A stretch of 61,211 nt of DNA, counting the filler, from Streblomastix strix (lineage: Eukaryota): the NCBI GenBank assembly GCA_008636045.1. It is 3 parts of 3 records of this genome, joined end to end, with 100 filler letters (N's around TTAATTAATTAA, not from the genome) between each part and the next. Parts side by side here need not be neighbours in the genome. Positions count along the whole stretch, not along the records: positions 1 to 20,352 come from SNRW01000438.1; 2 more parts are not named here. One strand, given 5' to 3'. The position numbers and the translations under genes were made by a program. Positions 1-61,211 of the stretch are shown piece after piece; the stretch's first letter is position 1; each line of letters starts with the position of its first letter. The notes below the pieces were generated by a model that worked only from the letters and a program-made list of their open reading frames with translations, did not search any database and was not told the DNA's origin.

Positions 1-803
1 GTTTAATAGGCTGAATTATTAGTCATTACAATAACTTACAAAGGATTCAAGGACCCGAACTCTGGTGGAACATTTACTGCATTATATATAATCTATGAGA
101 TAAGTGTATGACCAATTGAATTCACACATAAAGTTATTGTTGTATTTCGTTTCCGCTCAGGCTCTAACTTTGTTGCTCGTTTGCAATTATCTGGACATAC
201 GACCTTTAAATTTCTGTCAATCACTTCACTTCCAGTCTCATCTATATTACAGATGTTCTCGATATCATATTTACTCAGAATACTCTCAAAATACTCATAA
301 AAGGGCCTTAAATTCGATTAAGTACATGCTTAAAGACGCTTTATATCCAGAAGATGACCTCGTAATACTTTATATAATTTACTTCTGTCAATATAATGAT
401 CAGCCCAACCTTTTGATAATGTAGCTTTTTGGTTTTCTGTTCATTTTTGATTCTGATCAATTAAACTTTATGCTTTATCTTGTATCTCAGGACGAGTTGA
501 ATACTATTTAAATTTAATTTTTCTCTAGATCCATTCGTGTAGAGATATCTCTTCCTCTTCCCATAATTCTGATGGTCTCCCAACATGACCTAAAGTGCGA
601 TGGTGATTATGAACATCTGCAGCATGATCTAATTGCCATCGAGAAACAAGGCCAGTGGAAAGAATGTTTGCGCGCTCATAGCCACGCGTAACAAGTAATT
701 CCCATGCAAGTTGTAATGTGAAAGGTGAGTATGTTAATTTTCCTTAAAGATGCAATAATTTGATTTCTGTAATGATCAGCTAATTTTGAATTCGACGAGG
801 CAT
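1..803 (-). pseudogene. pogo-family (DDE_1) transposase relic, N-terminal half; runs off the contig start
   Basis: ATG at 803. Table-6 translation gives an HTH-like GRPSELWEEEEISLHEWI, then LSKGWADHYI, the first catalytic-Asp motif NICNIDETG, and TITLCVNSIG. Contains frameshifts and internal TGA; GTAAG donor near 39. Confidence 0.8.
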
Positions 804-4407: not shown

Positions 4408-6270
4408 ATGCCAAAAATGAAACAAAAATCTCCCCTGCAAAATAAAAATTTTTCACCGGCAAATTTTGGTGAAATAGGTCTTAAAAAAATCGCTGGCTGC
4501 AGCTAACGTCGATGTTTGGAAAATGAAAAAAGTTATACACATACATGCAGAAGGACAATAACTTAGCTAGAAAGGAAGCCCCGGTTTGCTATTTAAAGAA
4601 GAAAAACAAGAACTATTGATCTGGTTAACGCAGCGTGTAAAATCGAAGCAGTACCCTCATGTTTGTGAGATTTTTCAAATAGTTAGAGAATTTTTATAAA
4701 TAAATTACTAATTTTTTTGTTTTGGCTTGATCGATCACCTATTTCAACCCCAAACGACAAGGAATAACTCCGAGATTACATAGAACATGGCCATATAATC
4801 TTCAAAATTTTTAGCCGCAATTCAAGTTAGTTAATGGACATAGACTAGACGAACCCAGATTGAGAGCATGTACAACATCTGCAATTTAACCATTTTATAT
4901 CAAATTTGCTTTATATAAATCAAAAAGACAATATCAAAAGCATAATTAATGGAATTTTGATGAAGCTGGTAACTAGATTTGAATTAGTTTAATAATAAAT
5001 ATTAATTATTTATATTTTAATATTAATTGAATAAATTAATCTTGCATTATTAGGAGGGATCGAGGTTGGAATAGAAGAATCATCACCGATAAATTTTGAA
5101 GAAGATAAACTCACACCTTTGACTGTTACACCTTGTATTTGTTCAGGAGGAAACTTTTTTATCAGCCTAGCTAATATGCAAATCTAAAAGAAAAGTATTT
5201 GATGAGTATCATAATCTTCCAAAGAAGTACTTTTTTGTCTAATTCAGTGACAGTGCTTGGTAAACAAAGGCTACTTTAGAAGTTTATTTATGGCAAGTCG
5301 TTTTTCCTGGTTTTATCAAAGCGCTGTTAGAAGGTCTTAAAGGATAACCAGATGATAATGAATGGCTTATTTTATTCGATGATGGGCACAATTCGAGGAT
5401 CAATTCTTCTCTCTGGTTATATGCGTTGTAATTAAGAATAGATGTATTTTGTATTCCTGCACCCTTCCACAGTGACTCAACCCTGTGACAGAGGCGTCAA
5501 TGTAGAATTGAAGGTAAAATTCGAATTTATATTATATATTTTAATAGATTATTTAAAAAATTTGCAAATATTTCTGAATAATTAAGTAACATTTATTTAA
5601 ATTATTTTAATATTTAATTTTTTATTCATTTTTGGACTCTCTTGTTCATCATCTTAAAGCACATACTGTTTATGATGAAGACTATCATGATAATTAGACT
5701 TAAGCATCAAGAAATAGAATCTCAGTCTGTAGAGCACTTGTACCTGCGTATCAGGATGTCATGCATTTTGATGCAGTAACAAATTCCTGGATGTAAACTG
5801 CCATATTTCCGTTAGAACTTGATATTATTCGTAAGTTGGGTGAGTGCCAACTTGCACCAAAACCGTACCATTTGTCATCTAGATTTTCCTACTCTGGATG
5901 CTTATTTACTGATCCATCTTTCCTAAAGCGTTGGAAATAAGATATTGCAATGAAAGCAGAAGCTCGCAAGTAGATTGAAACTTAGCAAGATTAAACAAAT
6001 TCAAATGAATTAAATATTGAGAAAGAAACTGAAAAAGAAATTGAAAATTAAAAAGACATTGAAATTAAATAAAGAACTGTTGATGAAGATCTAATTGAAG
6101 TTGAAGAAGATAGTGAAGAAGATGAGGACTATAGCAAGATGATGGAAATTGAAGAAGATAATCAACTAAGTTATATTACATTTAATGCGTTAAAAGGAAA
6201 AGATGATAATTCTCTCCAAAGCGAAGAAAAATAAAACTATGAAATTGAAAACAAATTGGATCAGTTCCGA
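4408..6270 (+). mobile_element. pogo/Fot1-like DD35D transposase pseudogene with spliceosomal-type introns
   Basis: HTH-like GSPGLLFKEEKQELLIWL (~4573-4625), WNFDEAG (~4950), TVTPCICSGG (~5122), and LILFDDGHNSR...FCIPA/PSTVTQPCDRGVN (~5365-5500). Spacing is 35 aa between the 2nd and 3rd Asp if a 2-nt deletion near 5462 is restored. Acidic C-terminal tail; AT-rich GT...AG gaps such as 5513-5547. Confidence 0.85.
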
Positions 6271-10633: not shown

Positions 10634-11189
10634 TCTATGCTACATATATAAAAAAATTACACTCCCATAGCAAAAAAAACATGAAAAACGCATGATTTTT
10701 CTCGGACTCCAGACACATATATATAAGTAGCATAAATTCAGTCTATGTAAAATATATTTAGAAAAATTCGGTTACTTCCCCGTTGTCGAGAAAAATTGCA
10801 TTTTTTTTGATTGGCTGTTGAAATTTTGACCTTAGAATTTTTTGGTAAAAATATATTCAATATATTTATTTAAAGCAGAAAATCCGTAGCGGAGCGCGGG
10901 TAGACCCCTAGTCTATGCTACTTATATAAAAAAATTACACTCCCATAGCAAAAAAGACATGAAAAACACATGATTTTTCTCGGACTCCAGACACATATAT
11001 ATAAGTAGCATAAATTCAGTCTATGTAAAATATATTTAGAAAAATTCGGTTACTTCCCCGTTGTCGAGAAAAATTGCATTTTTTTTGATTGGCTGTTGAA
11101 ATTTTGACCTTAGAATTTTTTGGTAAAAATATATTCTATATATTTATTTAAAGCAGAAAATCCGCAGCCGAGCGCGGGTAGACCCCTAG
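10634..11189 (+). mobile_element. two head-to-tail 278-bp non-autonomous Helitrons (10634-10911, 10912-11189)
   Basis: Each near-identical copy starts 5'-TC and ends CTAG-3', with a GC-rich hairpin (CCGCAGCCGAGCGCGG in copy 2) about 11 nt upstream of the end. The array sits between host A and T with no TSD. Confidence 0.88.
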
Positions 11190-11608
11190 TTTTGTTTTCA
11201 TTCTTTAGCAGGAGTATTACATAAAAAATATCATTTATTTTTTATTTGTGTATTAATTAATTGTTATTATTTTACTAAAATAAATGATTTTAATAAATTT
11301 TACCAAAAAAAGTGCGGTTTTGATTTTACCACACGGTTTTGGTTTCACCAACAACCCTATAAAAAAAATTTCAAAATTATTTTTTTTTCATTAAATTCAA
11401 AATTTTAAATTAATAATAAAAATAATGTTATAAAATAATATTAGAAAATCTTTTTTCAATGGAACTTTTTAAAAAAATTTCATTTTCAAAAAATAGAAAT
11501 AATTTTTTTCTCAACATCTGTAGTATTATATTAAATATAAATGTTGTAATTTAGTTTATATATAATTGTAATAAAGAAATATATATTAATGTATTATGAT
11601 CATAACAC

Positions 11609-11671
11609 TTTTCTTCAGGGTGACAGGTGACATGGGTGCCATGTCACCCACCACCATGTAACCCAAGAAAA
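11609..11671. repeat. GC-rich hairpin/iteron-like element near the left end of the viral segment
   Basis: Perfect stem GGTGACATGG (11626-11635), 3-nt loop, CCATGTCACC (11639-11648). Preceded by a direct GGTGACA copy and enclosed by imperfect arms TTTTCTTCAGGGTGACA...TGTAACCCAAGAAAA. Confidence 0.8.
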
Positions 11672-12523
11672 TCGTATCACCGATATAACCCTAGGCCTTG
11701 CTCCACATTCAGTTTGTATTTATTATTCCAGACAAATAATTTATGTGGTTGCTACATTTTTTCATTTGTAATTTAATCAACTATTTTTCTAAACTAGAGG
11801 CTATCGAATGCTCCAATTCCCAAAATTTGTTTTTGTTATTTAGCACTCACTCTAACCAATTAACTGGGATCTATATAAGTAGTATATAAGGAATATCTTT
11901 GTACCAACTCCAAAAATGCATGACCACCACCATTTGTTTTATCTTTTTTTGTTATATTTTTTATTATTGTTTCCTCTCTCCAGGCTATCGCCTTACGTTC
12001 AAAAACAATCTCTAAAGTCTATAACAAAAACATTAGAAGCATTTTGACAGTTATCGCTTTTAAAGTTATTACTAAAATATTCCTTATATATTACTTATTG
12101 ATTTATTATTTACTTAACAAAATTCTTTGTACCAACTTCATTCTTCAAATTGTCATAAAAAACTATTTTGCATGGTGTTTTTTATAACGAAAACGTCTAT
12201 GACACTTCGGTCTTTCAACATCAGCGCCACAATGCTCTTCACGCACTTATAAAAACATTGTGTTTTTCATAACAAACACGTCTATGCGATGACGGTTTAC
12301 ACATAAGTGCTACAATGCTCTACACGCACCCGTAAAATCAAGCATTGTGGAATCAACAATGGAAAAATAAATGGATATCACTAATGGTTCCTATTAATGG
12401 TATGGATCATTAGAAGAGTTCAAACACATGTAAATACTCCTCATGTTATATAGGCTACTCCTCATTCATCTACAGCGTAGTCAGTTCTTGAATGGCTTTC
12501 CTTTGGGAAGTGTTTTCTCTCAA

Positions 12524-13490
12524 TGTTATGGCTTCTGTTCAATTGGTTTAACCTCTTTTTGTTTCATTTACTTAAATCTATCTTTATATTTTTATATTTG
12601 TTTCTATGTTTATATATGTTATTCTTTTATAAATTTATTCTTTGTTCTTAGCTATATCAGTTCTTCAAAATCTAGTTAAGGATTAGTGTAGTTAATAGTA
12701 GATGCTTTTTATTAGTGTTTTTACTTCGAACCTTATGACTTCTTCTTCACATCCATGATAATTTCTCTTTTACTAATACAGTATAATCCGGTTAATTCGC
12801 ACACCGGTTAATTCGCACCATATGTATAATTCGCACTATTATATTATTTGAGGAAATGTCACTGTTTCTCTATTAATTTCTTATAGATAATTCGCAAAAA
12901 AATTTTAAAATTCGCACTTAAAACATAACAAATTTAGAAAAATAATTTTTGTTTGTTAAATTAATTATGAAAAATTTTAATTTTTAATGTAAATATTTAA
13001 AGTTTATTATTATAAATTACTGTTTATACAATATCATACATAAAATTTTCAAAAATACAAAGATTTTTTTTGGTTTTAAAAAAAATTGAAAAAATAATAA
13101 TTTTTTTGAAATTTAAAAAAAAAATTCTTTGATTTTTTTACTTATAAAAGTGCGAATTAACTTAATTCGCACTCGCATTTTTTTCGCCGATGGTAGTGCG
13201 AATTAGCCGGATTTTACTGTAGTTCTTTCATCATCATCAGCATCATCTTATTCATCAGAACTGTTGTTATTATCATCATCCACATTCATTATACTGGTGA
13301 AAACAAGCTTAGGAGTTGGACATATAGCTAATAGCTTATTCTATTGTGCTTGAGTAATTACTTTAGGTCCTTTATAACTATCTTCATATACTTTAATCTA
13401 TTTGCATACTTACATAATATAACAATTGTTGAAGCTCTCGAACGAAGTTCCATTTTCTTTTAATTTTCTTAGTGCTTGTGATTTGTCAAT
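12524..13490 (-). pseudogene. viral ORF of unknown function, interrupted by the MITE
   Basis: DKSQALRKLKENGTSF...DDDERT|ISKREIIMDVKKK; the frame is restored exactly when 12779-13219 plus one TA is removed. Confidence 0.6.
12779..13219. mobile_element. 441-bp Tc1/mariner-pogo-type MITE with TA target-site duplication
   Basis: TIRs CAGTATAATCCGGTTAATTCGCAC / GTGCGAATTAGCCGGATTTTACTG; TA at 12777-78 and 13220-21; several internal AATTCGCAC copies; non-coding AT-rich interior. Confidence 0.92.
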
Positions 13491-13522
13491 TTATCAATAA
13501 ATAAATTTTTTAATCAATAAAA

Positions 13523-14380
13523 ATGATTGCAGGTATCGAGAGGAATTAGCTTTGTATGAGTAAATCAAAGAAGCAGATATAAGACATGAAAAAAGAGTTA
13601 TCTGAAGAAGATAATATTAATTTATAATCGATTGATTAAGCTTTGAAAAATTTTTCAATTCCACAATAAGAAATTAAAGAGGATAACAGTAATGATGAAG
13701 TTAGACCTAAGAAACATTACAATAAAAATAAGTATCGAGATGTAGAACGAGAGACTGCGTCAGTAGAACCTGAGGAAGTAGTTAAAAATACATTCTTTGC
13801 ACATCCAAATTTAATGGTTCTTAAATTCGTAATTAGCAAAGTGTGGAGTAATGTTACGTAAAGAAAAAGAGGAGAAGATTTTATTTTCAGTTCTGATAAC
13901 TACATTAAATTTTGGTCAATAATAACATAAGAAAATGAATATGATATTGAAGTATTATTTGAAGAACCTATCATCTAAACTCATTCATGTATGCCTAAGA
14001 AATATAAGAAAAAAGACTTATTTAGAGTATAAAATATTTTAATAAAAATCGTTTCATTCAAAGTTATGAACAATGCTTTATACAACACATTTGAGAAACT
14101 TTATCGTGTGAATGTTGATCTTGTACGTAAATCAGATATTATAGAGAATGATATAGATAAAAAAGAATTTTGATTCTCTTAGATAAACAATCGTATCGTT
14201 TATTTTTAAAACAAATAGAATCATTAATCGAACCAACTGAAGAGGAGTTAATTAATATACAAAAATAACTGTAAGAGATATAATAAAAATAAGAGGAAAT
14301 AAAGTAATTAGAGAAATTGTAAAAATAACTAACCCCTTTCATTGATATGGAGATTATAAAACTATTTACTTACTTGAGTT
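13523..14380 (+). pseudogene. viral ORF of unknown function with coiled-coil C-terminus
   Basis: ATG ATT GCA GGT... open in table 6 for about 215 codons, then TGA/frameshift and an EEELINIQKQLQEIQQKQEEIK coiled coil; intronless. Confidence 0.5.
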
Positions 14381-14389
14381 AATATATTA

Positions 14390-15250
14390 AAACTAAAGAT
14401 GTTAATATATCACCTTTGGTAACGTTAAATTCAACTTAAGCTATTATTGGAGACAAAACGTTTACATAACCTATTGTAGCAAACAAGCTTATAAAGACAG
14501 GTATAACAAATAAACATTAATCTACTGGCTAATGGTGGCACATCAGATATAGATGATTTTTTGCTAAAGGAAAGACCTTACGCTTTAACAGATTTTACGT
14601 TATAGCCAACATCATTATTAATTGATACAAAAGAAGCAGGGATAAAAATAAATAGGGGAATGGGAGGTTAGCCAAGTAATATATATTTAGGTACTAATGT
14701 TTATAATCCAATTGGTGGAGTATCAATAATAGAATATAGTTGGGTAATTATTTCTTAATTTGATGGTACTGGAAGATGGCTTCGTGATGCACCTTTCCAG
14801 ATATAAAAAGATGATGATTATAAAATTATATATAGATAGAGGGATATATAGATAGAGATTATATAACATTAAAATTTTATGGCAAAGTCGTTGTTACTAC
14901 AACAGCTAAATCAAGTGTGTTTCACTTGGGTGATTATGTTGTTGGATTAAGCTAAGGGTCCTTAGTTTGGTACAGCAGCGGTATCGTTTATATTAATTAA
15001 TATCTTCGTTGGACCTCATAAGGTGGTTCGACTAGTATCCCAGTCATTGTGGGATATGTTGATGATGATTTTTATTCCTAAATTTGTAGGGGTAATAACA
15101 ATGTAGCATTTAACAGCTTCATCAGCCAATATAAATTAATATCTTGATTGTGTAATCAATTTGCAAGGGTAAGTTATTATCAATTCAAATAGTCTTATTA
15201 ATTTGCCTGTTACATTAAATGTAGAAATTTATGGTACTTATTTTATTAAT
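14390..15250 (+). pseudogene. viral fibre-like protein 1 (phage tail-fibre-type motifs)
   Basis: LVTLNSTQAIIGDKTFTQPIVANKLIKTG...LANGGT motif, a GIKINRG...SNIYLGT...W module shared with fibre 2, and a C-terminal beta-rich head ending VEIYGTYFIN; frameshifted. Confidence 0.6.
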
Positions 15251-15417
15251 TTTACTTCATGGATATAAAGAATTTCTTACTTTATCACTTACATCTTCAT
15301 CATCTATTTTTTTTGTTATATTGTTAATACAGAACTTAATAGATTGTTAAGTACTATAACTTTTTATGATATACTACTTAATATCTCCCAACAAGTCATT
15401 TAAATTAAAAAATAAAA

Positions 15418-16450
15418 TCATTATCTAATAATTTCGAACCTTTTCTAGTACTTATTAATGATAATAAACTTATATTTATTTAAGGTGCTGTATATTATCA
15501 TTATCTCTTACTTTATCAGTGAGTTGATGTGGTTTTCTTCATATACTTGCTTTATATCATTGTCTGATATTCCTTACCCTACGACTATTATATAGCATAA
15601 TATTCTAGAAGTTTTATAAAGAAAGCTAGGTCTTTAAGCAGCAAAGAATAATGTATTTTTTGCATGTCTGCTTTCACTAACCAAATGGGTTATTGTACGT
15701 AATAACTCTGAGGTATAACGTTACGTATCTGTATTAGAACCTATATCATCAAATATCATTAGTGCAGATAACAATTTATCATTCAATAGTATAAGAAATT
15801 TTAGTGTCTTGACTATCTCAACACCATTGTCATCTATCTCATGTGTATCAACAATTTTTAGTCTTTTTTTATATGTCATGTTTTATATCAACGGAGGAAT
15901 AGAAAACTGTGATACTTTTTATGGTTAACTTTATGTGTTATTAGTCCCAATACAATAGACCTTGAACTACTCTTTCATTCTTGCAGAAAACCATTAATAG
16001 GACTCATCTTTTTTTTAACTCATTAGAATCATACATTTCTTGTTTGAGTTTGTTTATATAATCACTATTATAATGAATATTCATTTGTTTTAACTTATAA
16101 TACGTGTATATCTCTTTAACTTTATATTAAAGTTCATCAAATTAAGATAGGAAAATCATAGCTTCGTTGTATGTCATATTTGTTAGTAGAACACTTTTAT
16201 CATTCATATTGATTGCCATAGTTTCGTCTGGACCTAGATTGGAGAAATATAAGATGTTAAGATTAATGATGTGTTTGTATAATATTATTAACTTAGACAA
16301 TAACGTTGTTTTACCACTTCCAACAGCTCCAACAATATAGTGGTTTCCATTAATAACAAAGATTGATTTTGAAGTCAAAGGTTTTGTTTTGTATTCTTCT
16401 AACATACTGTAATTATCGAATTATATATGGTTAATATCTTAGGAACTCAT
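15418..16450 (-). pseudogene. A32-like (FtsK/HerA superfamily) genome-packaging ATPase
   Basis: Walker A YIVGAVGSGKTT (~16307-16340), Walker B ALMIFDDIG (~15740-15768) and the A32-type ESRHAKNTLFFAAQRPSFLYKTSR. ATG 16450, TGA 15418, one frameshift near 16055. Confidence 0.88.
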
Positions 16451-16506
16451 TTGATTAAAATTAAATCATCAAACTATTTGTTACTAATTTATTAATTTCA
16501 AAGTAA

Positions 16507-16863
16507 TCAGATATCGATAATGTTTTGGTAACTTTAAATCTTTGTCATCTACTGCTAACTACACTAACTAATACAACTCGTCAATTGAAAGCTAATTCCA
16601 TTATTATTTGATAACATCATTTTACTCTCTGAAATATTTGTCTTCGAGCTAATGCTCCATTTTCTATGATAAAAGAATTTGATTATATACAATATAATAC
16701 TTATCGGTATCACTCTAACATCAATATAACACCATGACCTCATAAATACATTAATCAATTACTATGCTTCTGGGGGATGTGATAAACTTATAACAGATAA
16801 TAAGAAGTCAACATCTTAAAAAATAGAATTTATAATAATGGAAATTAACAATATAATGTTCAT
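16507..16863 (-). CDS. possible small viral protein with hydrophobic N-terminus (118 aa)
   Basis: Open ATG-TGA frame in table 6; weak evidence because only TGA stops exist, and the plus strand could be the real (decayed) frame. Confidence 0.25.
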
Positions 16864-16999
16864 TTATTTTTATTTAAAATATAATCCTTAATATAATAAC
16901 AATTGTAAGTAATAAAACGACTTATACATTCTGATATAAGTTATTATATGTAATACTCAAAGAAAAATATTTCGAGTAGTGTAGCATAGAACAATGAAT

Positions 17000-19082
17000 A
17001 TAATTTAATAATAGATGATTAAAATAACTTGTTGTATTGTTAAAAAAAATAATCACTCAATATAAGCTATGAAACTAACTCCATAGGGTTTGTTAATAGT
17101 AAATAATCTATAACTATTGAACAATGATTTTCATTAAAAATTACCCAGTTAGAATAACAAGTACATCAGATATAGTAATAGATAAATATAAGCATATAAG
17201 ACATAGGACAGTTATAAGCAGATGCATAAGTAATAAACTAAGGGCTAACGAGGTAGACACATTTCAGAGGATACTTTGCAACTAACGATGAGATACTACC
17301 TTTGTAATCTAGTGCTGTGGGTAATTATGTGTATAGTATAGAGGATTTACTAGTATGGGTCTATGAAGATAATTGGGCTGAAACAGATCAAATTGTACCA
17401 GACTAAGTAACCTCAGCAAGCGATAATACACCTCTAGAGGATAGTGCAGAAGGTGATGCAGGAATTTCAAATGATTAAGCTAGACGAGATCATAAGCATC
17501 CAATATAAGTTTCTTCCGTCTTGCAAGCAAAAGATACCGCAACTGGTGAAAAAAGAGTTGCAACTACTTATGCTAGATCTGATCATACTCATCATGTAAA
17601 TTTAAGTAATGGAGTTCCCCTAAAAGATACTGGTACTGGAACAGCTGATACATCTAATTTATATGCTAGTGCCACACATTAACATCCTCTTAATGTTGAT
17701 CCAACTGTCGCAAATGTTCTCCTTGTAAATGCTACTGCTGCAGATAATGGATCGAGTGATTATTATTGTTGAAATGATCATGTACATCCATAGTAATTAA
17801 CATATGATGGAAATATTACAGAAACTAAGTATATTAAGACTGGAGGTACAGATAATGAAATATTATTAGGAGTTTGGACAATTAAAAAAGGAGTTTTAGC
17901 AAGTAAATTATATTAAGTTATTGAATAACCCCTATATATTAAATTATGTACGTTTATTGCTTTAAATTCTTCTACTGATAATTTAATAGAATTCAAAATA
18001 GATACTAGAAGCGTGTTTGGAAAAATACAATTTAATTATCATTGGACCTAAGAAATAGGAATTGATAATTATTAATACTAGTTTATCCCATCGTTATCAT
18101 CTGGTTTGAATAGCGCATGGATATTAAATTTTGTTACATGTATAAATAGATATGGAGAATTATTGTGTCGAATTGATGATTTAACTTATAGTACGACAAT
18201 AAAATAGACAGATATAAGTGCTTTTTAGGGTAAAATAACCGATATATTAATTACTGTTTCATAATCGACATTACCTACAGGATTTAGTAGTATGTAACAA
18301 TTATTTCCAAACTCACGAAATGGATCTATTAAAATTAATCCAATTGGAGATAGTTAAGGTGTATCATATAATTAAGGCATAAGAATATCAGATTCAATTT
18401 ATAATACTGCTAGTTGAATATGCTTCAGACGTAATATAATAATATTAGTAATATAAATGAAAAATAATGGAGCGTTATAGCAAATGATAATGGAATTGTA
18501 ATCAGCTTAAATAATTAACCATAATATTTAAATTAAGGATTACATATATCAGTTGAAGGATAAACATTAACATTTAATGGAAATGAATTCGTTGATGTAG
18601 CAATTAATTAAACAATTACTGTAATAAAAACATTCGGAAAATTATTATAAGTAAATCCAACAGTTGATTGATCATTCAACGAAGGAATAAGAATTAGTAG
18701 GCACCCAAACAACTAATGGAGTAATATATAGTTTGATAGTGATCCAAATTCAAATACTAGTTTTATTAATAATTAATGGCTGATAAGAGTAAAAGGAAAT
18801 AATGCTTAAAGTCCATTTAGTTTTACCATAGTAAAAGCATGATAAGAAGGTTATGTTGATAGAGGATTACAAATATCCGCTGATGGAAACACATTAACAT
18901 TTAACGGGTTTGTTATTGCTGGCGCAGGAGCAACTAACGGTTCAGTTAATTATTCATAAGGTAATGCAATCTTATGGGATGTAAGTAGTGTTGGAGCGGA
19001 GGGTGGATTCTATAGCAATGGAACTAATGTATTCTGGAGAGCCCAAACATTACAATTTGATCAGTTCTACTAAGAACAATGA
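17000..19082 (+). pseudogene. viral fibre-like protein 2 with four HxH repeats and repeated beta-modules
   Basis: THFRGYFATNDEI...WVYEDNW; four ~29-aa repeats ending RRDHKHP, RSDHTHH, SATHQHP and *NDHVHP; KYIKTGGTDNEILLG; two GIRIS...W..GL.IS.(D/E)G.TLTFNG modules. Ends FWRAQTLQFDQFYQEQ-TGA at 19082; internal TGAs; start approximate. Confidence 0.75.
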
Positions 19083-19899
19083 TGTTTTTCTCTTCGTTCA
19101 AAAAATTTTTTTCAGGAATTTTATTTTTACATAAATAATTTAGTTATTAATAGTAGCTTAATAAATAGGTAAAAAGATTAACGTATCGGATAATGAAATA
19201 TACCATATCTTTAAAGCATTAATCAAGCCAATTAATGACATAGATGAAGAAATACTTTAAGAAATTAAAAATCAATATTGCGATAATGATAAACTAATAC
19301 TACCAGACAAATGTAATGAAATAATAAACTACATTTACTATCTTTCAATTCTTTCAGTATTGTAATTGGATACAATTAATAATATTCATAAAACAACTTG
19401 TATTATGTTTCTTATGCAAACTAATTATATACTTACATATCTTTGTCTGTTGCACCCATTAGTAGGAACTATTTAATTTTTGTTATTTTTGGATTGATAT
19501 TTACTTCTTCTTTTGTGCTGTTATACATTTTAGTATAATTATAGTTATTTTCATTATAAAGTTTATTGTTATATTATTCTCTTTCACTAATTCGTTTATG
19601 AGTCTATAATCTAAAGTTTTATAGATGAAATTATAGTCTGAGTTCTGACAACTCATAATAAAAAGGGTGACATATATCTCTATTATATCTTATATTAGAT
19701 AACTTATATTCTAATTGTTCTAATAAATTTCTATCTTTAAACTTATCTTTTAGATTCTTTGTCGTTAATATTTTAAAAAGTTATTCCTTCGAATTTTCTT
19801 TTCGTTGGGCCATCTATTAATAGAAAGAAAAATAAAACTTTGGAACAAACAAATCTTTGATATGGTTTCGGTACCCTCAAAAGGCTTTAGCCTATTTTT

Positions 19900-20352
19900 T
19901 TAATCGCTTCTTATAGCACTACCTCCAATCTCTCCGATAATTTCTAACGTTAATACTTATGAACCTGGGTTATCGTCGAACATTATGCGTACAATTTCAT
20001 CACATAGATAGTGCGTAAGTAGTGTCAGCTTTACATTTTCAATATTCGGATAACATATAGTAGAAGTAACGTACTTAAAGTCATTTCAATCTACATCTGC
20101 AGGTCTTATAATATCATCGGCGCAAATATTATTTACAGGAGTAATTCCTATTTATACTTCTATATCTTTTATTCTACATGATTCACGTCTATAGGATCTA
20201 TTACTTAATAGAACCCTTCAGTCTTTAACTATTTATAGTATTTTACTTTACCATTTTTTGATTCGGTTAATTAATAGAATTGTTTGCTACATAGTCTTAA
20301 ACTATTCAACGTATACTATTCACTCTTATTAATAACCATACCATGAATCTTG
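19900..20352 (-). pseudogene. C-terminus of a large beta-rich viral protein, candidate major capsid protein
   Basis: Reads VKLTLLTHYLCDEIVRIMFDDNPGSQVLTLEIIGEIGGSAIRS with frameshifts upstream. The capsid call rests on context (beside ATPase and fibres), not a diagnostic motif. Confidence 0.4.
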
Positions 20353-20452
20353 NNNNNNNNNNNNNNNNNNNNNNNNNNNNNNNNNNNNNNNNNNNNTTAA
20401 TTAATTAANNNNNNNNNNNNNNNNNNNNNNNNNNNNNNNNNNNNNNNNNNNN
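20353..20452. other. artificial contig spacer
   Basis: N-run + TTAATTAATTAA + N-run. Confidence 0.97.
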
Positions 20453-30100: not shown

Positions 30101-32834
30101 AAATAGCTATTATTATTTATATTTTAATTCTTATTTGATAATATATTAGAATGTCCAAATGGTGTACTTACAGAAGAAAGAAATTGATTTTCTTAATTAA
30201 ATCTTTCTTTTGATTATTCTTCTTCTCTTAATAATTAAGTTTTCATTCTATCTGATTCTTTCTTCAATTATACAATATCTATTGTTAGTACTATTAACAT
30301 TGAGAGAAATATAGGGATTTATAAAGAATAAAAATAGAAATATAATGAAACAATAAATTTTTATTTTATAAATAATTTATTCAATTTTATTATAAATATA
30401 CATTATAAATTTTTTTCTTTCTCGTCTATTTAGGAAATAAGTCTTTTTGTTTCATCATCTATTGATTTCTAATGAATAATATTTTAATTAAAGATATAAT
30501 AATTAATAAATTTGAAAAATCTTTAAGTATTAAATTTATTATTATTGAAATAGTATTGCTTATATTTAATATATAATACTTTTCTTTCTTACTCTGATCT
30601 TGCTTTCTCAGCATTCGAACTTTCAACTACACGAAGACGTTCTATTAATACTCGAGTCTATCGAAAATAAATAATAATATTGAAAGGAATATTTTAATCA
30701 ATAAATAAATCAAACTTCCATTTTCCCTCCATTTGCTGCAGCTTATGCTTATTATTCTGCCTCTATTGCCTTCTATTCAGCTTATTCTAATTCACTTTAT
30801 TTATCCTTATTAATTATATATATAATTAGAAAATGAAATAAATATGGATAAATAAAAGAAGTGATATTGAATATACCTAATACTCATAATCAAGCTATTG
30901 AGATTTCTCTCTTAATTATGCACATTCTGATTCTAACTCTTATAATATATTTAACGCAGCATTAACAGAAGAAGAAGCTGATTGATGAAAAGATTTTGTA
31001 TTCCTTGAAGGAGACAATTATAATGAGGATTAAGATGCAGATAATGATATTGGAACTCTTGAGTATTAGGTCCCTTTCCATCCTTATGAATTAGCAAATG
31101 ATGTGGCCTTAATTAATAAGAAAGAAAGAAAGAAAGAATATTATGAATCTGTATTATTTACTTTCATCTTATTAATTATTATTATAGACAATTGGACAAT
31201 TAATACTACCTCATTCAATTTCTCCTCTAAAAGAGTTATCTTTCTCTTTGTAATCTAGTTCTGTTATCTTGTTTATTCTATTTCCCTTTTTAATTCATCT
31301 ACCCTCTGATTTGTGTATTATCTAGTTTACTATTGAAAGTTTAATATATAATATATAATATATAATATATAATATATAATATATAATATATAATATATAA
31401 TATATAATATATAATATATAATATATAATATATAATATATAATATATAATATATTATATATTATATATAATATATAATATATAATATATAATATATAATA
31501 TATAATATATAATATATAATAGATAATATATAATATATAATATATAATATATAATATATAATATATAATATATAATATATAATATATAATATATAATATA
31601 TAATATATAATAGATAATAGATAATATATAATATATAATAGATAATAGATAATATATAATATATAATAGATAATAGATAATAGATAATAGATAATAGATA
31701 ATAGATAATATATAATATATAATATATAATAAATATAATAGATAATAGATAATAGATAATATATAATAGATAGTCAAACCTCCAAATCTCCTCTCATTCT
31801 TTTCTCTGATATTTCATCCTGTTCATTCCATGTCTGTTCAAATTAATCATTTCTTTCTTCCCAATCATCTTAACCTCTATTTGCTTATTTCATAAGTTCA
31901 GAAATCTAGATTATGAATTTAAATTAATAAGAAATATATTAGAAAACAATAGCATTTATTATTTATTCATTTAACAATTATTATTTAATATATACCTGTG
32001 CTTAGAGCATCTTTGTTTCAATTGCATTCTCTTCCTCTTATTCCTTAAGTCTGATTTAGAGTTTCAATTAAAACAATAAGTATTAATATAAATATTATTC
32101 AAACTGTTTACTCAATTCCTCAAATTCAGATTAAAGAGACGTGTGTTGAGCTTGAGCTGTTTCTAGTAGATTAGTACTTTCAGCACTAAAATCTGGAATA
32201 AACAAATATAAGTATCAAGAAAATGATATTATAAACAAGTTATATTATATTATTTTATATTAATCAAACCAATGTTTCCAAGTTCACCTGAACTGGCAAT
32301 TTTATTGGAATTTGCAATTTCTTTCAATCTTATTTCAGCTCTTTCTATTCTTTCCTACGCATCAACATATTCATTCTCAGCTTATTCAGTCGCTTATAAA
32401 GCTTATTTACGTTCATTATCTATTGCTTATATTTCCACTCTCATCTTAGCCTTCAAATCCAACAGCTCTGATTCAGCTGCTGTCATCCGTTTGTGCATAT
32501 CTTATGCTGTAGATTCAGCTGTTTTCTTTTTCTGTTCAACCTCTGAAATTTGGGATGTTAGATGGGCGGTTTCTGTTGCTTTTGTTTTTTAAATTTCATC
32601 CCGTAGTGTATTTACCATCCTCTATGAATCAGCTGCCATACGCTGAACTTTATTAAATTCTTCTCTGGCAATTTTTGTTTCCTAGCTCTAAGCTTGCAAT
32701 CGTTCGCTAAGTTCTTCCTTTTCTTTTAGTAACTAAAGTTGCATCTCATTCATTGCCGTAACTTCTTCTTACTTAAGTCGAACAGCTTCACGTGTTTGCT
32801 GGATTTCTCTTCGCAAAGCTTCAACTTCAGACAT
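27146..32834 (-). CDS. large multi-exon coiled-coil protein (cytoskeletal/basal-body-like), unknown family
   Basis: MSEVEALRREIQQTREAVRLKQEEV...; E/Q/R/K-rich heptads over many GT-AG-separated exons; ends QELDMKNEF-TGA. Confidence 0.75.
31341..31770. repeat. intronic 7-bp satellite (AATATAT)n with AATAGAT variants and a short inversion
   Basis: About 430 bp of heptamer repeats, orientation flip near 31454-31465, inside a minus-strand intron (~31330-31779). Confidence 0.95.
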
Positions 32835-40787: not shown

Positions 40788-40887
40788 NNNNNNNNNNNNN
40801 NNNNNNNNNNNNNNNNNNNNNNNNNNNNNNNTTAATTAATTAANNNNNNNNNNNNNNNNNNNNNNNNNNNNNNNNNNNNNNNNNNNN
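40788..40887. other. artificial contig spacer
   Basis: N-run + TTAATTAATTAA + N-run. Confidence 0.97.
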
Positions 40888-46893: not shown

Positions 46894-48903
46894 TCACAGG
46901 TAAGCAACAATTACTGAAATGTTGTCAGTGCTTCCTGTCAAGAAAGCCTGGTCTATTAATTTCAATGAAGCCTAAACAGGATCTGAATCTGTAGCTACAA
47001 TCTAACAAGCAAGATCATCACTAAGCACATCCCATACTCCATCACAAGCAAGAATAATAAATTCATCTCCTGGTGATACATTAGTAACAGTTAGATAAGG
47101 GTCTGCAGTGACATATGGATGAAGGAAGAAATCTCCTAATGAACGTGCAACAGCCAAGATACCAAGGACACGGCGATCTGTAACATGACCACCTAATGCT
47201 CTGATTCTCTCAACTTCTTCAGGAATATCAGCTTTATGATCAAAAGTCAATCTAACTGCTCTTCCTTTACGACTCAATACTATTCGTGTATCTCCTGCAT
47301 TTGCACAGTATATTTTATCACCTGTAAGAAGACACACTGCTCCAGTTGTACCATCATTAATGTCATATCTGTTCATTTATTGATTTGTTTCTAGAAAGGC
47401 TTCTCTTAATGCAACATTTGGAGGCTGACCTGCATCAAGACGTGCAGCAATGATTGGAGGCATATTCTCTGCACAAAATTCAGATGCATCTCTTCCACCA
47501 TGACCATCAAATACAGCAAGAAGATCTTCATCTGGTCGACCTCTGAAGTTACGTTTAATTACAATCATATCCTCCATTGTTAATCTACGTCCAATTGTAT
47601 CTGCATATCCAACTCTAAGCTTCCTCTGTCTTCTTAAATTAGCGTGTCTCTATTAACCTGGAAGAAGGAATGGTAGTTCAAATGGTCCAAACATTGCAGC
47701 CAACCAACGAGCAGCCTGTTACAATATAACTCTAGATGGCATTCTCACTCCAGTTAGATTTGTATTAGCAAGAAGATCTTCAGAAGAAGGACTGCTTGTG
47801 AATTAGCCATGATTAGTAGCATCTGTTCCAGGAGGTGCATTCTCTCCACTTCCTTTCTATCCAGGTGTTATCCAATAGAGACGAGTTCCTCCTTCTGTTG
47901 TCTCTTCTTCTGCTATTAAGTTCTTTGACATTGCTTGCTACCAGAATTCTTCCATAATCTTATTCAATGCATATGAGACTGCATTATTACGTTCAAGGAT
48001 TCGTTCTATGGCAACTAAATGATTGTTTGGTATGGGATTCTGGGATACATCAACTTATCGAAGTGAAGTGTTTTATTGCAATGCTAATACTAACTATTAT
48101 GATCCTTCCATTCCAATGTGATTAGCTGAGAGATCAACATATCCCAATCTATGATTCTCAGGGATGTTAGAAGCTATATGACATGCACCTTCATCTCCCA
48201 TTTCAAGGTGAGATAGTCCAAGTTTGAAGAGAGTTCGGTTCAAGCGAAATGCTATAGAAAGATGCATGACACCCTCCATTTTCCCAGGGTTGAAACTCAA
48301 GTTTAGAGTTGTAAGTGTTTTGTTTGCGCGAAGAGATTATCCCAGTAAAATAAAGCCTGCTTACCCAATTTTGTTGTGCGATAAATCAAGCTGTATAAAA
48401 GTAGAATTAGTAATAATTAAATAGAAAATTTTAAAAACGAACTTTTCGAAGAAAGTGCTTCTCTTTCAGCATATCAGAAACAACATTCACTGCATCATCG
48501 GCCAACCCGCAGTTTTGTAGAGTAAGTTCACAAATACTTTTAGTATTTTCCATCCCATTCAATATGCACGCAAGACATAGTGAGTTTAAGCGTATTTTTG
48601 CGAATAGAACAGGAAGAACAGAGGATTTAACACTTACAGCTGTCAATTGCTCGCCCAATTATGGAAGAAATTCAGAAACTTTCTCCGTTGGCTCCTCCTA
48701 AATTAATGAGCGATATTTTCGAGCTATATTCGCATAGAATGTCTCAGCACTAGAGTTCTAAAACACCAGCGAACTACTCCCGCATCCCCTTATGATAGAA
48801 AAGAAAGAAATTATAAAATTATTGTTATTCTAGTTTGCCCCTTATTATTTATGGATTAATATATTTAAAAAAATATTATATGTGAAAAGAAATAATAATA
48901 CAT
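46894..48903 (-). CDS. N-acylated LRR (RNI-like) plus PP2C/PPM Ser/Thr phosphatase
   Basis: MGCGSSS start, LRRs, then RLTMED, AVFDGHGG, ANAGDTR, LAVARSLGD, LACDGVWD and STDNISV; introns 48789-48901 and ~48392-48440. Confidence 0.92.
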
Positions 48904-57768: not shown

Positions 57769-60700
57769 TCACTATATAATATAATATCTGTCTGCTTTAA
57801 TCCCATGTATGAATGGAACGCACGATTGATTTTATAATACTATCATTTTTGTATGAGATCCAGTTATTGCATTTTTCTCCATTTTCAACCTGTTCATAGA
57901 CTCCTTGTGTTATGCTGACGTCGTATTAATAGCCGTTGTAACAGAACCCTTGTTTATACAATCCACGAATGTTTATTGATTGATCTACGGATTTTGATCC
58001 AAAATTACTCCCTTCAAAACAATCTCATCATTAATTATGTAATTTTTAGGTGATAAAGCAATACAGTTTAATCCATACTTTTTCACACCTAAATGCAATA
58101 TCTATTTCCTCTCATTATCCGTATACACACTATTTTTGTACCTATCATAGAACTATGAGTCTTTGATGACTGCTTCGAATAGTTACTCAGAACCACGATT
58201 TGAATCACCGCTAATCGCATAAGTGAGTGAATCAGTGTCCCCTTAAACGAAATGCATCTTTTACATATCATACGCCTTGTGCATGAAATTATATATAAAA
58301 TTAACGTACCAAAATTTTGCTGAACCTAATATGAAATATGCTTCTTATAAACAAGTATTACAGTGACAATTCTCTTTATCGACTTATACAGCGTACAAAT
58401 CATCGTTCAATTCTGTAGAATTAATGAAGCCAGACATCATATGCTATTGAAACGTTCGTTCAGACGATAGCAATTTTGTATTCGAGTACTTCTCTGAATT
58501 CAAACAATCACCACCAAAAGTTGAATTCAATATTATTTTTGCAAATTATGATAGTCCATCATTATGATCATCTTTCGCTTGCTATCTTATACTCATAAAT
58601 TCTTTAACAAACGAATTGAAATTAGTATGTTTCGTAAATGTTGTAACACTAACTATCTCGTTTATAATAAAGTTACAAATAAAAATAAGTAGCTATACAT
58701 AATAATTGTTAAAACTCATTACTTAATTCATTATATCCACAAGATTAGTCAATTTACGTTCAACTGAATCATGTGGAAGCTTATGCTCGACTAGATGATT
58801 ATATATAAATTCACCTATAGTTTCTTTATTAGTTTTATGTCAATGTTCCTTAATATTGGAGCCCAATTAATCACATCATTTAAATAATTTTCATCAATAT
58901 GACCCTTAACTTCTGCAACAAATAGATACATCTAATCAACAACTAACTTATCACTACTAAATTTATTAGCATCATAAATCAACTACATACATTTATTTTT
59001 TTCAGTAATCTTTTCAATTAATTGTGCTGGCATATATATTGTATTACAAGTGTATGGATTCAACGCGTTTGGTTCGCCACTCATAACTGATGGATATTAG
59101 CTATTGAAATCTAACTAAACTACATGCGTTTAAGCATAATCTGAATCGATAGAGTATACGCACTTATTCTCCTTATCGTACTCGAAATGATTGATTCTAG
59201 TTTCACCCGCAATATTATATCGATACATCAAATTTGATAAACCACCCGTTATTCCTTTACGTAATAACTAATATCCTTCATCACTTGTTAGTGTCATGGG
59301 TAATTATTTAAATAACGCATACTTCCTTAGTTATATCAGTAATTTCATCTAGTTTTCATCACGATTTGCTTTATAGGTATTACAGTACAAGCAGCATGGA
59401 ATAACATTGGATTTTGAATGACCTAACTTATTTTTATCCTATCAAGTGTAGGACGATTCTTCCAAGTAAATCTTGCATTACAAATATGACAACGTTAATT
59501 CTTGAATACATCTTTAAAATAATAATAATCGTCAATTGAGACATTATCACTTGAATCTCTATCCTTTTTACTATCTTATTCGATATAGCTTTCAACTTTC
59601 GATTTCCAGTAACACTACGTTATATCAATTGTTTTGTCAGTTGATTCATAATTGTAGTTATCATTAATATCGAAACTATTATAACACATAGTATATTTAA
59701 TAGCGTTTACGCATTAAGCCATAGAGATATTAGTCAACATATCAATCTTATATTTGAACATCGGATTAATGAAGAAATCAATTGGTTCGATTAATATTCT
59801 AGTATCTAATATATTATAATGCTTCAAATAATCCCATCGTGTTTTGAACTTTGCTGCTTCGACCAGATACTCCTTGTACTTAATTTCATTTAGCTTCTTA
59901 TTTCTTAATTAATTATCAAACGCATCAATCGGAAATGGTTCGCTTTTATTTAATTCTTCCATGAAATTATTAGTATTTATGAACTCGTGTGGAAACTTAC
60001 TTTTCTTATACTATCCATTTCCAAAATCTCGAACACAATCCTTCAATCTAGTATGTGTAGTGTAAATATTAAAATCAACAAACCTTAACTAAATTCCAAA
60101 TAGCTTATGTTTCACAAATATCTGTTTTGCTATTGATGTTGAGCCTAAATACTTCGAGATAGTCCAATCTTTTAACTTTAGATTCATAAATACATGTGAC
60201 GTATCAAATTTTGCTGAATTGAACCCAATAATTGGCACTTCAAAATATTACGGTATTGTCTCATCTTAGTAATTATTATCTTTCTTAACTTATTTACCTT
60301 CATCGAACAGTTACTCTAACCACTTATCTAAGAAATCATCAGTACGAATATCGTAATAGAATGAATGTATACCGCTAGCAGATTTGACAGTTGATGCGAT
60401 AGCATATGGAACTAACGTTGCAATAACTTATGAGCAATCACCGAATTTTTCATTAACTTTCCTCTCTAATGTTTCAATATCATATGTAATGTAGTATTAT
60501 GTAGGCTTGAACAAATGAGTTAGATTGTTCGCTAATAGATACTTGTATATCTTGTTAGATAATATATGAGGAACAAACGGTTTCGCAAATATCTCAAGAA
60601 TGACCTTTTTAACTATTTTTTCACCATTCTTTTGGCATTTTTTCATATGATTTCTCATTGATTATTATAGATTCTTATCACCTATTCGGAATGCTTATTT

Positions 60701-61211
60701 GTGACAGATATTACAATAACGGAATCCAGTTAATGCTTCAACATCAGATATATACATAATGTGAGCATTGATTCCATCGTTAATGAATAGGATATTGAAC
60801 TATTTTTCTTTATTTTCAATTGAATAGTTTTATAATAACTCATAACGTGGCGGACTATCTGAGTATGTATACATGTGCACATTAACTTATTCTTTATTTA
60901 TGAAATTATCAATATCATTAACAAAATCAAATCCTTAATAATTATCTCGAAATTCCACTCTATTATCCCTGAAGAATATACGCTTTGCTTCAGCGATTCG
61001 TGAACTATCCTTCCATTGTTTATCTTTCGAATTTGGCATTGTAATGAATGAATAGGCTGTCCAGAAGCATAGATTTACTTTACAGTCTACATAATAAATT
61101 TCTCTTCGTTTGATATGCTGTTTTAATGATGGAATTGCTGCACCTCCTAATGGATATTGAAATATGAAGAACATTACTGAGAATATTGCTATTATTTTTT
61201 CATGAGTATCA
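57769..61211 (-). pseudogene. protein-primed family B DNA polymerase (pPolB), 5'-truncated
   Basis: Exo I YDIETL, Exo II IGFNSAKFD, KFPHEF, Exo III-like YLKHYNILDT, Pol A LDFNSQYPS, Pol B KIILNSTFG, Pol C VQGDTDS and ALSPKNY...LKGV. Cys-rich insert; frameshifts near 59520 and 58840; TGA at 57769. Confidence 0.93.

Follow-up and report, generated by a model that had tools for sequence, protein, structure and literature searches.

A decayed viral gene cluster in Streblomastix strix

The window analysed here is a 61,211-nucleotide stretch of DNA from the oxymonad Streblomastix strix (assembly GCA_008636045.1), in which N-TTAATTAATTAA-N linkers (20353-20452 and 40788-40887) separate three contigs. 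At 13.4-20.35 kb it holds a decayed copy of an endogenous Polinton-like virus (PLV), with pseudogenes for a predicted fibre, a likely packaging ATPase and a major capsid protein, truncated at 20352 by the contig end (Table 1). An initial annotation had extended this element over 11500..20352 and had described an A32-type packaging ATPase lying between two fibre-like genes and a possible capsid gene. The ATPase, the large fibre gene and the capsid fragment were all recovered in our analysis, as was the span from 13.4 kb onwards, but the part at 11500-13400 carries a miniature inverted-repeat transposable element (MITE)-like insertion, and a family search of that stretch found no viral hallmark. 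Position 20352, proposed as the right edge of the element, is instead the end of a contig, since a linker starts right after it and the database model of the window's own fibre gene sits on a contig of 20352 bp. The identity of the smaller of the two listed fibre genes is uncertain: its motif matches are non-significant (E 0.4 and 2.7), the stretch 14383-15144 is split over three frames under translation table 6, and its protein has no match in a tblastn search of cultured phages. A gene model containing a capsid fragment also includes part of it (14928-15138), at 57-67%. The open reading frame (ORF) of 216 amino acids (aa) to its left probably belongs to the element. The G+C content of the element is 0.27, compared with 0.24-0.30 in its flanks.

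Table 1. Features of the first contig, with strand and supporting evidence
Position	Strand	Feature	Evidence or remark
11500..12776	-	Degenerate coding-like sequence; element membership not established	No Pfam family in three minus frames
12777..13221	.	MITE-like insertion; 26-bp terminal inverted repeats, 24/26 identical, TA then CAGT	Repeats; contigs skipping the region
13523..14173	+	Open 216-aa ORF, no family matched	Numerous related contigs (run X1)
14383..15250	+	Putative smaller fibre-like gene, spread over three frames; uncertain identity	Weak motifs
15421..16450	-	Likely A32-type packaging ATPase, pseudogene with 1 TGA and one frameshift	Motifs, intact relative P0146, atlas
16984..19082	+	Fibre gene, pseudogene with 5 TGA and one frameshift near 18430-18490	DHxHP repeats, KYIKTGGT, NQTITVIKTF
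17197..17511	+	Block common with phage genes: coil end, FRGY...W head, first DHxHP repeat	ORF of L022, alignment, tree
17251-17418	+	Fibre head, following the N-terminal coil	Alignment
17419-17796	+	Fibre HxH repeats	Alignment
17788-17868	+	Fibre neck	Alignment
17896-18306	+	Fibre variable middle	Alignment
18429-18890	+	Fibre distal part	Alignment
18858-19073	+	Fibre tip	Alignment
19906..20352	-	Double-jelly-roll major capsid gene, C-terminal fragment, TGA-broken, cut by contig end	79% identity to P0135
20353..20452	.	Artificial linker between contigs	DNA past linker is unlinked

The genes are written in the host code and are broken in this copy

Under translation table 11 the whole window yields 14 ORFs of at least 80 aa, one of them inside the annotated interval. 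When TAA and TAG are read as Gln, Gln is the majority residue at 35 of the 56 TAA/TAG codons for which three or more relatives align, versus 8 of 15 CAA/CAG codons, the relatives in this comparison having themselves been annotated with the TAA/TAG=Gln code. Several of these codons fall in near-invariant Gln columns (116/117, 117/118, 11/11 and 8/8), among them both Gln residues of the HPQQLTY motif. Opposite the six TGA codons with aligned relatives stand other residues (D, R, N, G, G and Q), and these TGA codons are therefore breaks. The initial annotation was thus right about the host code, which is already in print for S. strix in the accessible text of PMC10120064; its view that the genes become readable with table 6 stands for TAA and TAG as Gln but not for intact genes, as TGA stops remain in the ATPase, fibre and capsid pieces and frameshifts in the first two (Table 1). 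This copy is a set of pseudogenes and is unable to make particles by itself.

The element is present in many copies

A search with the fibre protein identified 261 relatives among 7090 candidates; all of the 120 listed come from S. strix, and 116 of these contain [AS]RxDHxH. The capsid fragment matched 11 of 452 candidates and the ATPase 8 of 142, again all from S. strix. Sequencing run X1, possibly the source sample, contains 3383 matching contigs, 1459 of them less than 90% alike; the source run is labelled as a termite gut metagenome. The gene order recurs as well: an ATPase (_014148), a fibre (_014149) and a capsid gene (_014150) carry consecutive locus tags on one 8922-bp contig, and four further contigs show fibre-capsid or fibre-ATPase neighbours. 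The element is a high-copy endogenous virus of S. strix. P0016, the database model of the window's own fibre gene, is itself named Streblomastix strix. Database gene models of the family (P0148-P0152, P0016 and P0222) often contain false splice junctions or extend into the antisense strand of a neighbouring gene.

Scans of IMG/VR for episomal copies gave 0/29 with capsid, 0/11 with ATPase, 0/58 with whole-fibre and 0/3 with P0259 queries, and a JGI scan with the S. strix capsid alignment gave 0/69. These negatives are weak, because the search patterns were back-translated in the standard code.

Intact relatives encode a double-jelly-roll capsid and a likely A32-type ATPase

Pfam and PHROG searches with the window's own 10 protein pieces returned nothing significant, and the assignments below draw on intact relatives. 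The capsid fragment (19906-20211) is 79% identical to residues 563-649 of P0135, a relative of 650 aa. A profile of this family gave 192 matches, and among the 150 listed are full-length metagenome relatives at 21-29% identity. The structure of P0135 predicted from a 56-row alignment had a mean predicted local distance difference test score (pLDDT) of 78.3 and a predicted template-modelling score (pTM) of 0.85; a model built from 11 close sequences reached a pLDDT of 29.2 and was not used for Foldseek. Foldseek matched the P0135 model, at a probability of 1.00, to the capsids of PBCV-1 (E 1.2e-12), Sputnik (4.1e-11) and Mavirus (4.9e-11) as well as to iridovirus capsids, over a range of E 1e-12 to 1e-10 and at 7-10% identity. 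The intact capsid relative is, by its predicted fold, a double-jelly-roll protein, as the initial annotation had anticipated for this gene. Foldseek does not fix its family, as virophage and giant-virus capsids score alike at this level of identity; a Pfam scan found no cysteine protease.

The ATPase pseudogene retains a Walker A motif (GAVGSGKTT), a Walker B motif (LMIFDD) and SRH/AAQ. Its intact relative P0146 (345 aa, 12 member sequences) has an atlas score of 0.97 to Pox_A32 clusters, and Pox_A32 is present in 63% of the 51 members of the first of these. On the strength of this score and the motifs, the enzyme is likely of the A32 type, in agreement with the initial annotation.

The fibre gene shares an N-terminal block with phage tail-locus genes

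Alignment of 66 fibre relatives revealed a conserved part, consisting of coil, head, HxH repeats and neck, followed by a variable middle and distal part. To the N-terminal side lies a conserved block of ~85 aa, the FRGY...W head plus HxH repeat, which the fibre has in common with phage genes. The window's own fibre protein is 38% identical over 142 aa (E 1e-20) to a 703-aa ORF of the IMG/VR record L022, which carries the best block by profile (99 bits; the pattern scan gave 20 IMG/VR loci). This ORF lies directly 3' of a tail collar fibre gene (PHROG E 5.7e-23; Pfam Collar). A gene three ORFs upstream has relatives, the best at 50%, in 10 of 101 genomes of the order of a Bacteroides-labelled genome that came out of a prokaryote genome scan, so the host of the L022 phage is likely a member of the Bacteroidales. 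That scan confirmed 2 of 43 stretches: the Bacteroides-labelled genome, with six copies of the 85-aa block on two contigs (L030 and L031), and a Clostridia-labelled genome with the short HxH repeat only. On L031, four block copies stand in one reading frame, after an XkdF-type protease and a structural gene.

Phage and S. strix blocks share a mean identity of 37-53% (maximum 57%), and the S. strix blocks share a mean of 72% among themselves. In an unrooted tree of 87 columns, from which 19 of 66 alignment rows outside 75-100 aa had been left out, 47 S. strix rows and 6 phage rows were split at a 99/99 branch. The N-terminal block is homologous in sequence to phage tail-locus genes. A block search of 401 genomes of the order found nine matches, eight of them weak. 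The short HxH repeat occurs widely, in 83 of 125 IMG/VR stretches picked out by pattern. A tblastn search of cultured phages gave no match for the fibre, the ATPase, the capsid or a polymerase (PolB) piece from the third contig; with the block as query, 15 cultured-phage records appeared at E 0.03-0.08 and were not counted. Of four IMG/VR records searched for a terminase, L022 not among them, one gave a match, under the cut-off.

A TAA at the Gln position of a QTIxG motif in L030 had raised the idea that the Bacteroides-labelled contigs were mis-binned viral DNA in code 6. This was rejected: both contigs are full of long standard-code ORFs, and L031 has phage head genes and a TAG at a conserved Trp. 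The prophage-like region L031:392-20000 (contig C240 of genome G001) also holds a long array of related ORFs that start MAQ[NH]TL..N[IV]ETA and have C-terminal parts that are all different, possibly a cassette of alternative fibre tips.

Modelling of three copies of residues 63-280 of the relative P0017 gave a trimer score of 0.51, versus 0.00 for the best of three controls, with contacts agreeing at 91% or more and pLDDT of at least 76; zinc was included in the model and was not scored. The score mark used is reached by 21 of 30 solved pairs and by 0 of 23 single chains, and in eukaryotes by 17 of 29 pairs, but by only one of seven eukaryotic pairs without an older solved relative. The prediction supports a homotrimeric fibre but does not prove one. 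PDB sequence searches gave coiled-coil or chance matches only. The variable distal half is likely the receptor-binding part.

With regard to the kinship to gut-bacterial phages asserted in the initial annotation, the N-terminal block bears it out and the variable distal half does not. The stronger wording, that these are phage-derived receptor-binding fibres, is not sustained: the distal domains lack a phage match, no strong PHROG or Pfam family was found, and the direction of transfer is unrooted.

Relationship to known endogenous viruses

Two features point to a PLV in the broad sense (Preplasmiviricota), a double-jelly-roll capsid and an A32-like ATPase, and both were found through relatives. 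Neither PolB nor integrase, expected of a strict Maverick/Polinton, was found in the linked stretch or among the 13 ORFs of the metagenome contig L033 (below), and the capsid fold and the TAA/TAG=Gln code do not fit a tailed phage or prophage. The element is an endogenous PLV, and the initial annotation of an endogenous double-jelly-roll virus is supported by the capsid fold and the ATPase of relatives. Neither a virus in host code nor phage-like fibres in such viruses are new to print. The accessible text of PMC10120064 reports 820 capsid genes in S. strix, in elements that use the host code; these 'Metamonada group' elements agree with ours in host, in TAA/TAG=Gln, in a double-jelly-roll capsid and in running to hundreds of copies. 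They differ in that, among the rows listed there, S. strix capsids are ~32% identical to those of Trichomonas vaginalis, with an example of 562 aa, whereas the capsid described here has 650 aa and relatives at 21-29%. None of six locus-tag strings occurs among the rows listed in the PMC10120064 table, and the capsid may represent a lineage outside the published S. strix cluster. The words 'fiber' and 'tail' do not occur in the main text of that paper, and we found no published report of the fibre link in S. strix in the literature covered, which mostly excludes subscription journals.

Phage-like fibres are common in PLVs, those of T. vaginalis included, according to the accessible text of PMC12220804, and are also described in the available parts of 10.1101/2022.07.28.501842 (Gezel-14T/PgVV Ltf) and PMC8502044 (MELD viruses); the T. 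vaginalis elements carry phage-tail-repeat (PF12789) proteins, as far as this material goes. Those viruses resemble ours in combining a capsid, an A32 ATPase and a modular trimeric phage-like fibre. They differ in the nature of the phage link, which in our case is direct homology of one block: none of the 66 members matched PF12789, gp36/gp37, the S74 chaperone or collagen at E 0.01. The virophage DSLV2, proposed in the accessible text of PMC12724248 to hitchhike on bacteria (Synechococcus), is likewise a double-jelly-roll virus of eukaryotes whose fibres have relatives in the phages of a neighbouring bacterium; its fibre is a gp37-like heterotrimer with tested lipopolysaccharide binding, whereas ours is a predicted homotrimer and the common part is proximal.

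A further comparison is offered by L033 (13,454 bp). It has a capsid homologue (segments of 31% and 26%), a homologous ATPase adjoining the capsid gene (26%, E 9e-29) and a fibre bearing repeats of the QTIxGxKTF type; unlike our element it is intact, uses the standard code, has another gene order and lacks the head-HxH block. L033:1-13454 further encodes a 701-aa candidate minor capsid protein (judged by eye) and three paralogous 200-aa ORFs, and its 13 ORFs have no Pfam match. It is the seed of a virus family with records up to ~21 kb.

A proposed reading and its alternatives

We propose that the locus is a broken copy of a high-copy S. strix virus written in the host code, whose intact relatives encode a capsid, an A32-type ATPase and a trimeric fibre with a phage-common block, and put the probability of this reading at about 0.72. 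In intact elements the ATPase would pump DNA into the double-jelly-roll capsid and the fibre would be displayed on the particle, probably at the vertices. The conserved coil-head-HxH part may act as shaft or anchor, and its HxH pairs would probably bind a metal at the three-fold axis, much as HxH pairs bind metal in T4 fibres. The shuffled distal modules would then set receptor choice on the protist. A single acquisition of the block from a phage seems most likely, because L033, a relative in the standard code, carries a different kind of fibre that lacks the block.

Several observations weigh against this reading. Fold and family calls come from relatives rather than from the window's own broken genes; Foldseek TM-scores are 0.31-0.41 by query, with no single family standing out, and the Pfam Pox_A32 model misses 8/8 ATPase relatives. 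The stretch cut at 20352 links this copy to no protein-primed PolB, integrase, protease or terminal repeat, nor to a penton, which could lie past the contig end. For the fibre, the block tree has no root and 87 columns only, so that the direction of transfer is unrooted; the full head occurs in three independent records only (two IMG/VR contigs and one genome); and neck, middle, distal and tip profiles match 0/122 loci. PHROG searches with the 66 members hit three families in 1/66 members each (best E 0.003), P0017 has no tblastn match among cultured phages, and atlas scores to phage fibre clusters, at 0.78-0.80, are leads only.

Much of the same evidence bears on the history of the block. It could be an old, widely exchanged fibre module, or one that moved from virus to phage, with the Bacteroidales link an artefact of sampling and not the trace of a transfer from the host's symbionts; we consider this possible but doubtful. 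The wide occurrence of the short HxH repeat, including in the Clostridia-labelled genome, the unrooted tree and the fact that no phage record was traced to a termite or an ectosymbiont all fit it, whereas the longer head is rare in the records and genomes counted above, the S. strix blocks form one group and L033 lacks the block. It is distinctly less plausible that the fibre binds the Bacteroidales ectosymbionts coating the protist and that these carry the virus to its host, in the way suggested for DSLV2. Streblomastix does carry such ectosymbionts according to the accessible text of PMC2717939, the block is common with likely Bacteroidales phages and PMC12724248, in its available part, offers a precedent; yet the common stretch belongs to the conserved proximal part, and no phage match was found for the variable distal part. 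The fuller scenario, in which an uncatalogued PLV lineage took a fibre module from a Bacteroidales phage, recoded it, diversified it to hundreds of variants and rides ectosymbionts to its host, strikes us as similarly improbable.

Other alternatives dispense with particles or with the virus altogether. The family might spread only as a transposon, or its fibre genes might be a domesticated family of host surface proteins. The present copy is defunct, no polymerase is linked and many of the gene models in the database are incomplete or chimeric, but intact ATPase and capsid genes persist and fibre genes adjoin them, and we regard the idea as unlikely. Contaminating phage or bacterial DNA in the single-cell assembly, suggested by the phage-like motifs and by the metagenome label of the source run, can be set aside almost entirely: TAA and TAG are both read as Gln and the capsid is a double jelly roll, a code and a fold that already refute it, and the MITE-like insertion and a G+C content like that of the flanks argue the same way.

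For the preferred reading, what may be new is the link of the block to phage genes, the trimer model and possibly an uncatalogued capsid lineage, which may add to the endogenous viruses known from protists. Recognition of a phage-like fibre in a virus of eukaryotes usually depends on remote similarity of profile or fold alone. Here, because the block is ~50% identical and the protist is coated with Bacteroidales, gene flow between phages and a eukaryotic virus within one symbiosis becomes testable with termite-gut data, and a fixed shaft with shuffled tips provides a natural series for receptor switching.

Other features of the window

The MITE-like insertion interrupts a minus-strand ORF, and run X1 also contains contigs without it; TA followed by CAGT is a signature of Tc1/pogo-type elements. 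Just to the left of the initially annotated interval, a 278-bp unit stands in two tandem copies (10634-11190, 97-98% alike), to which many contigs of run X1 are related. On the third contig, 57772-61210 (minus) encodes a broken PolB of the protein-primed type in three frames under table 6 (Pfam DNA_pol_B_2, E 3.8e-7, above the cut-off), with what we take to be exonuclease motifs; it is probably the end of another Polinton, unlinked to the element described here. A host gene encoding leucine-rich repeats together with a PP2C phosphatase domain lies at 46894-48465 (minus), and the 7-mer TAATATA occurs in 61 copies at 31342-31772. Finally, frames at ~5050-5750 and 1-720 (minus) resemble, by eye, decayed pieces of a DDE transposase.

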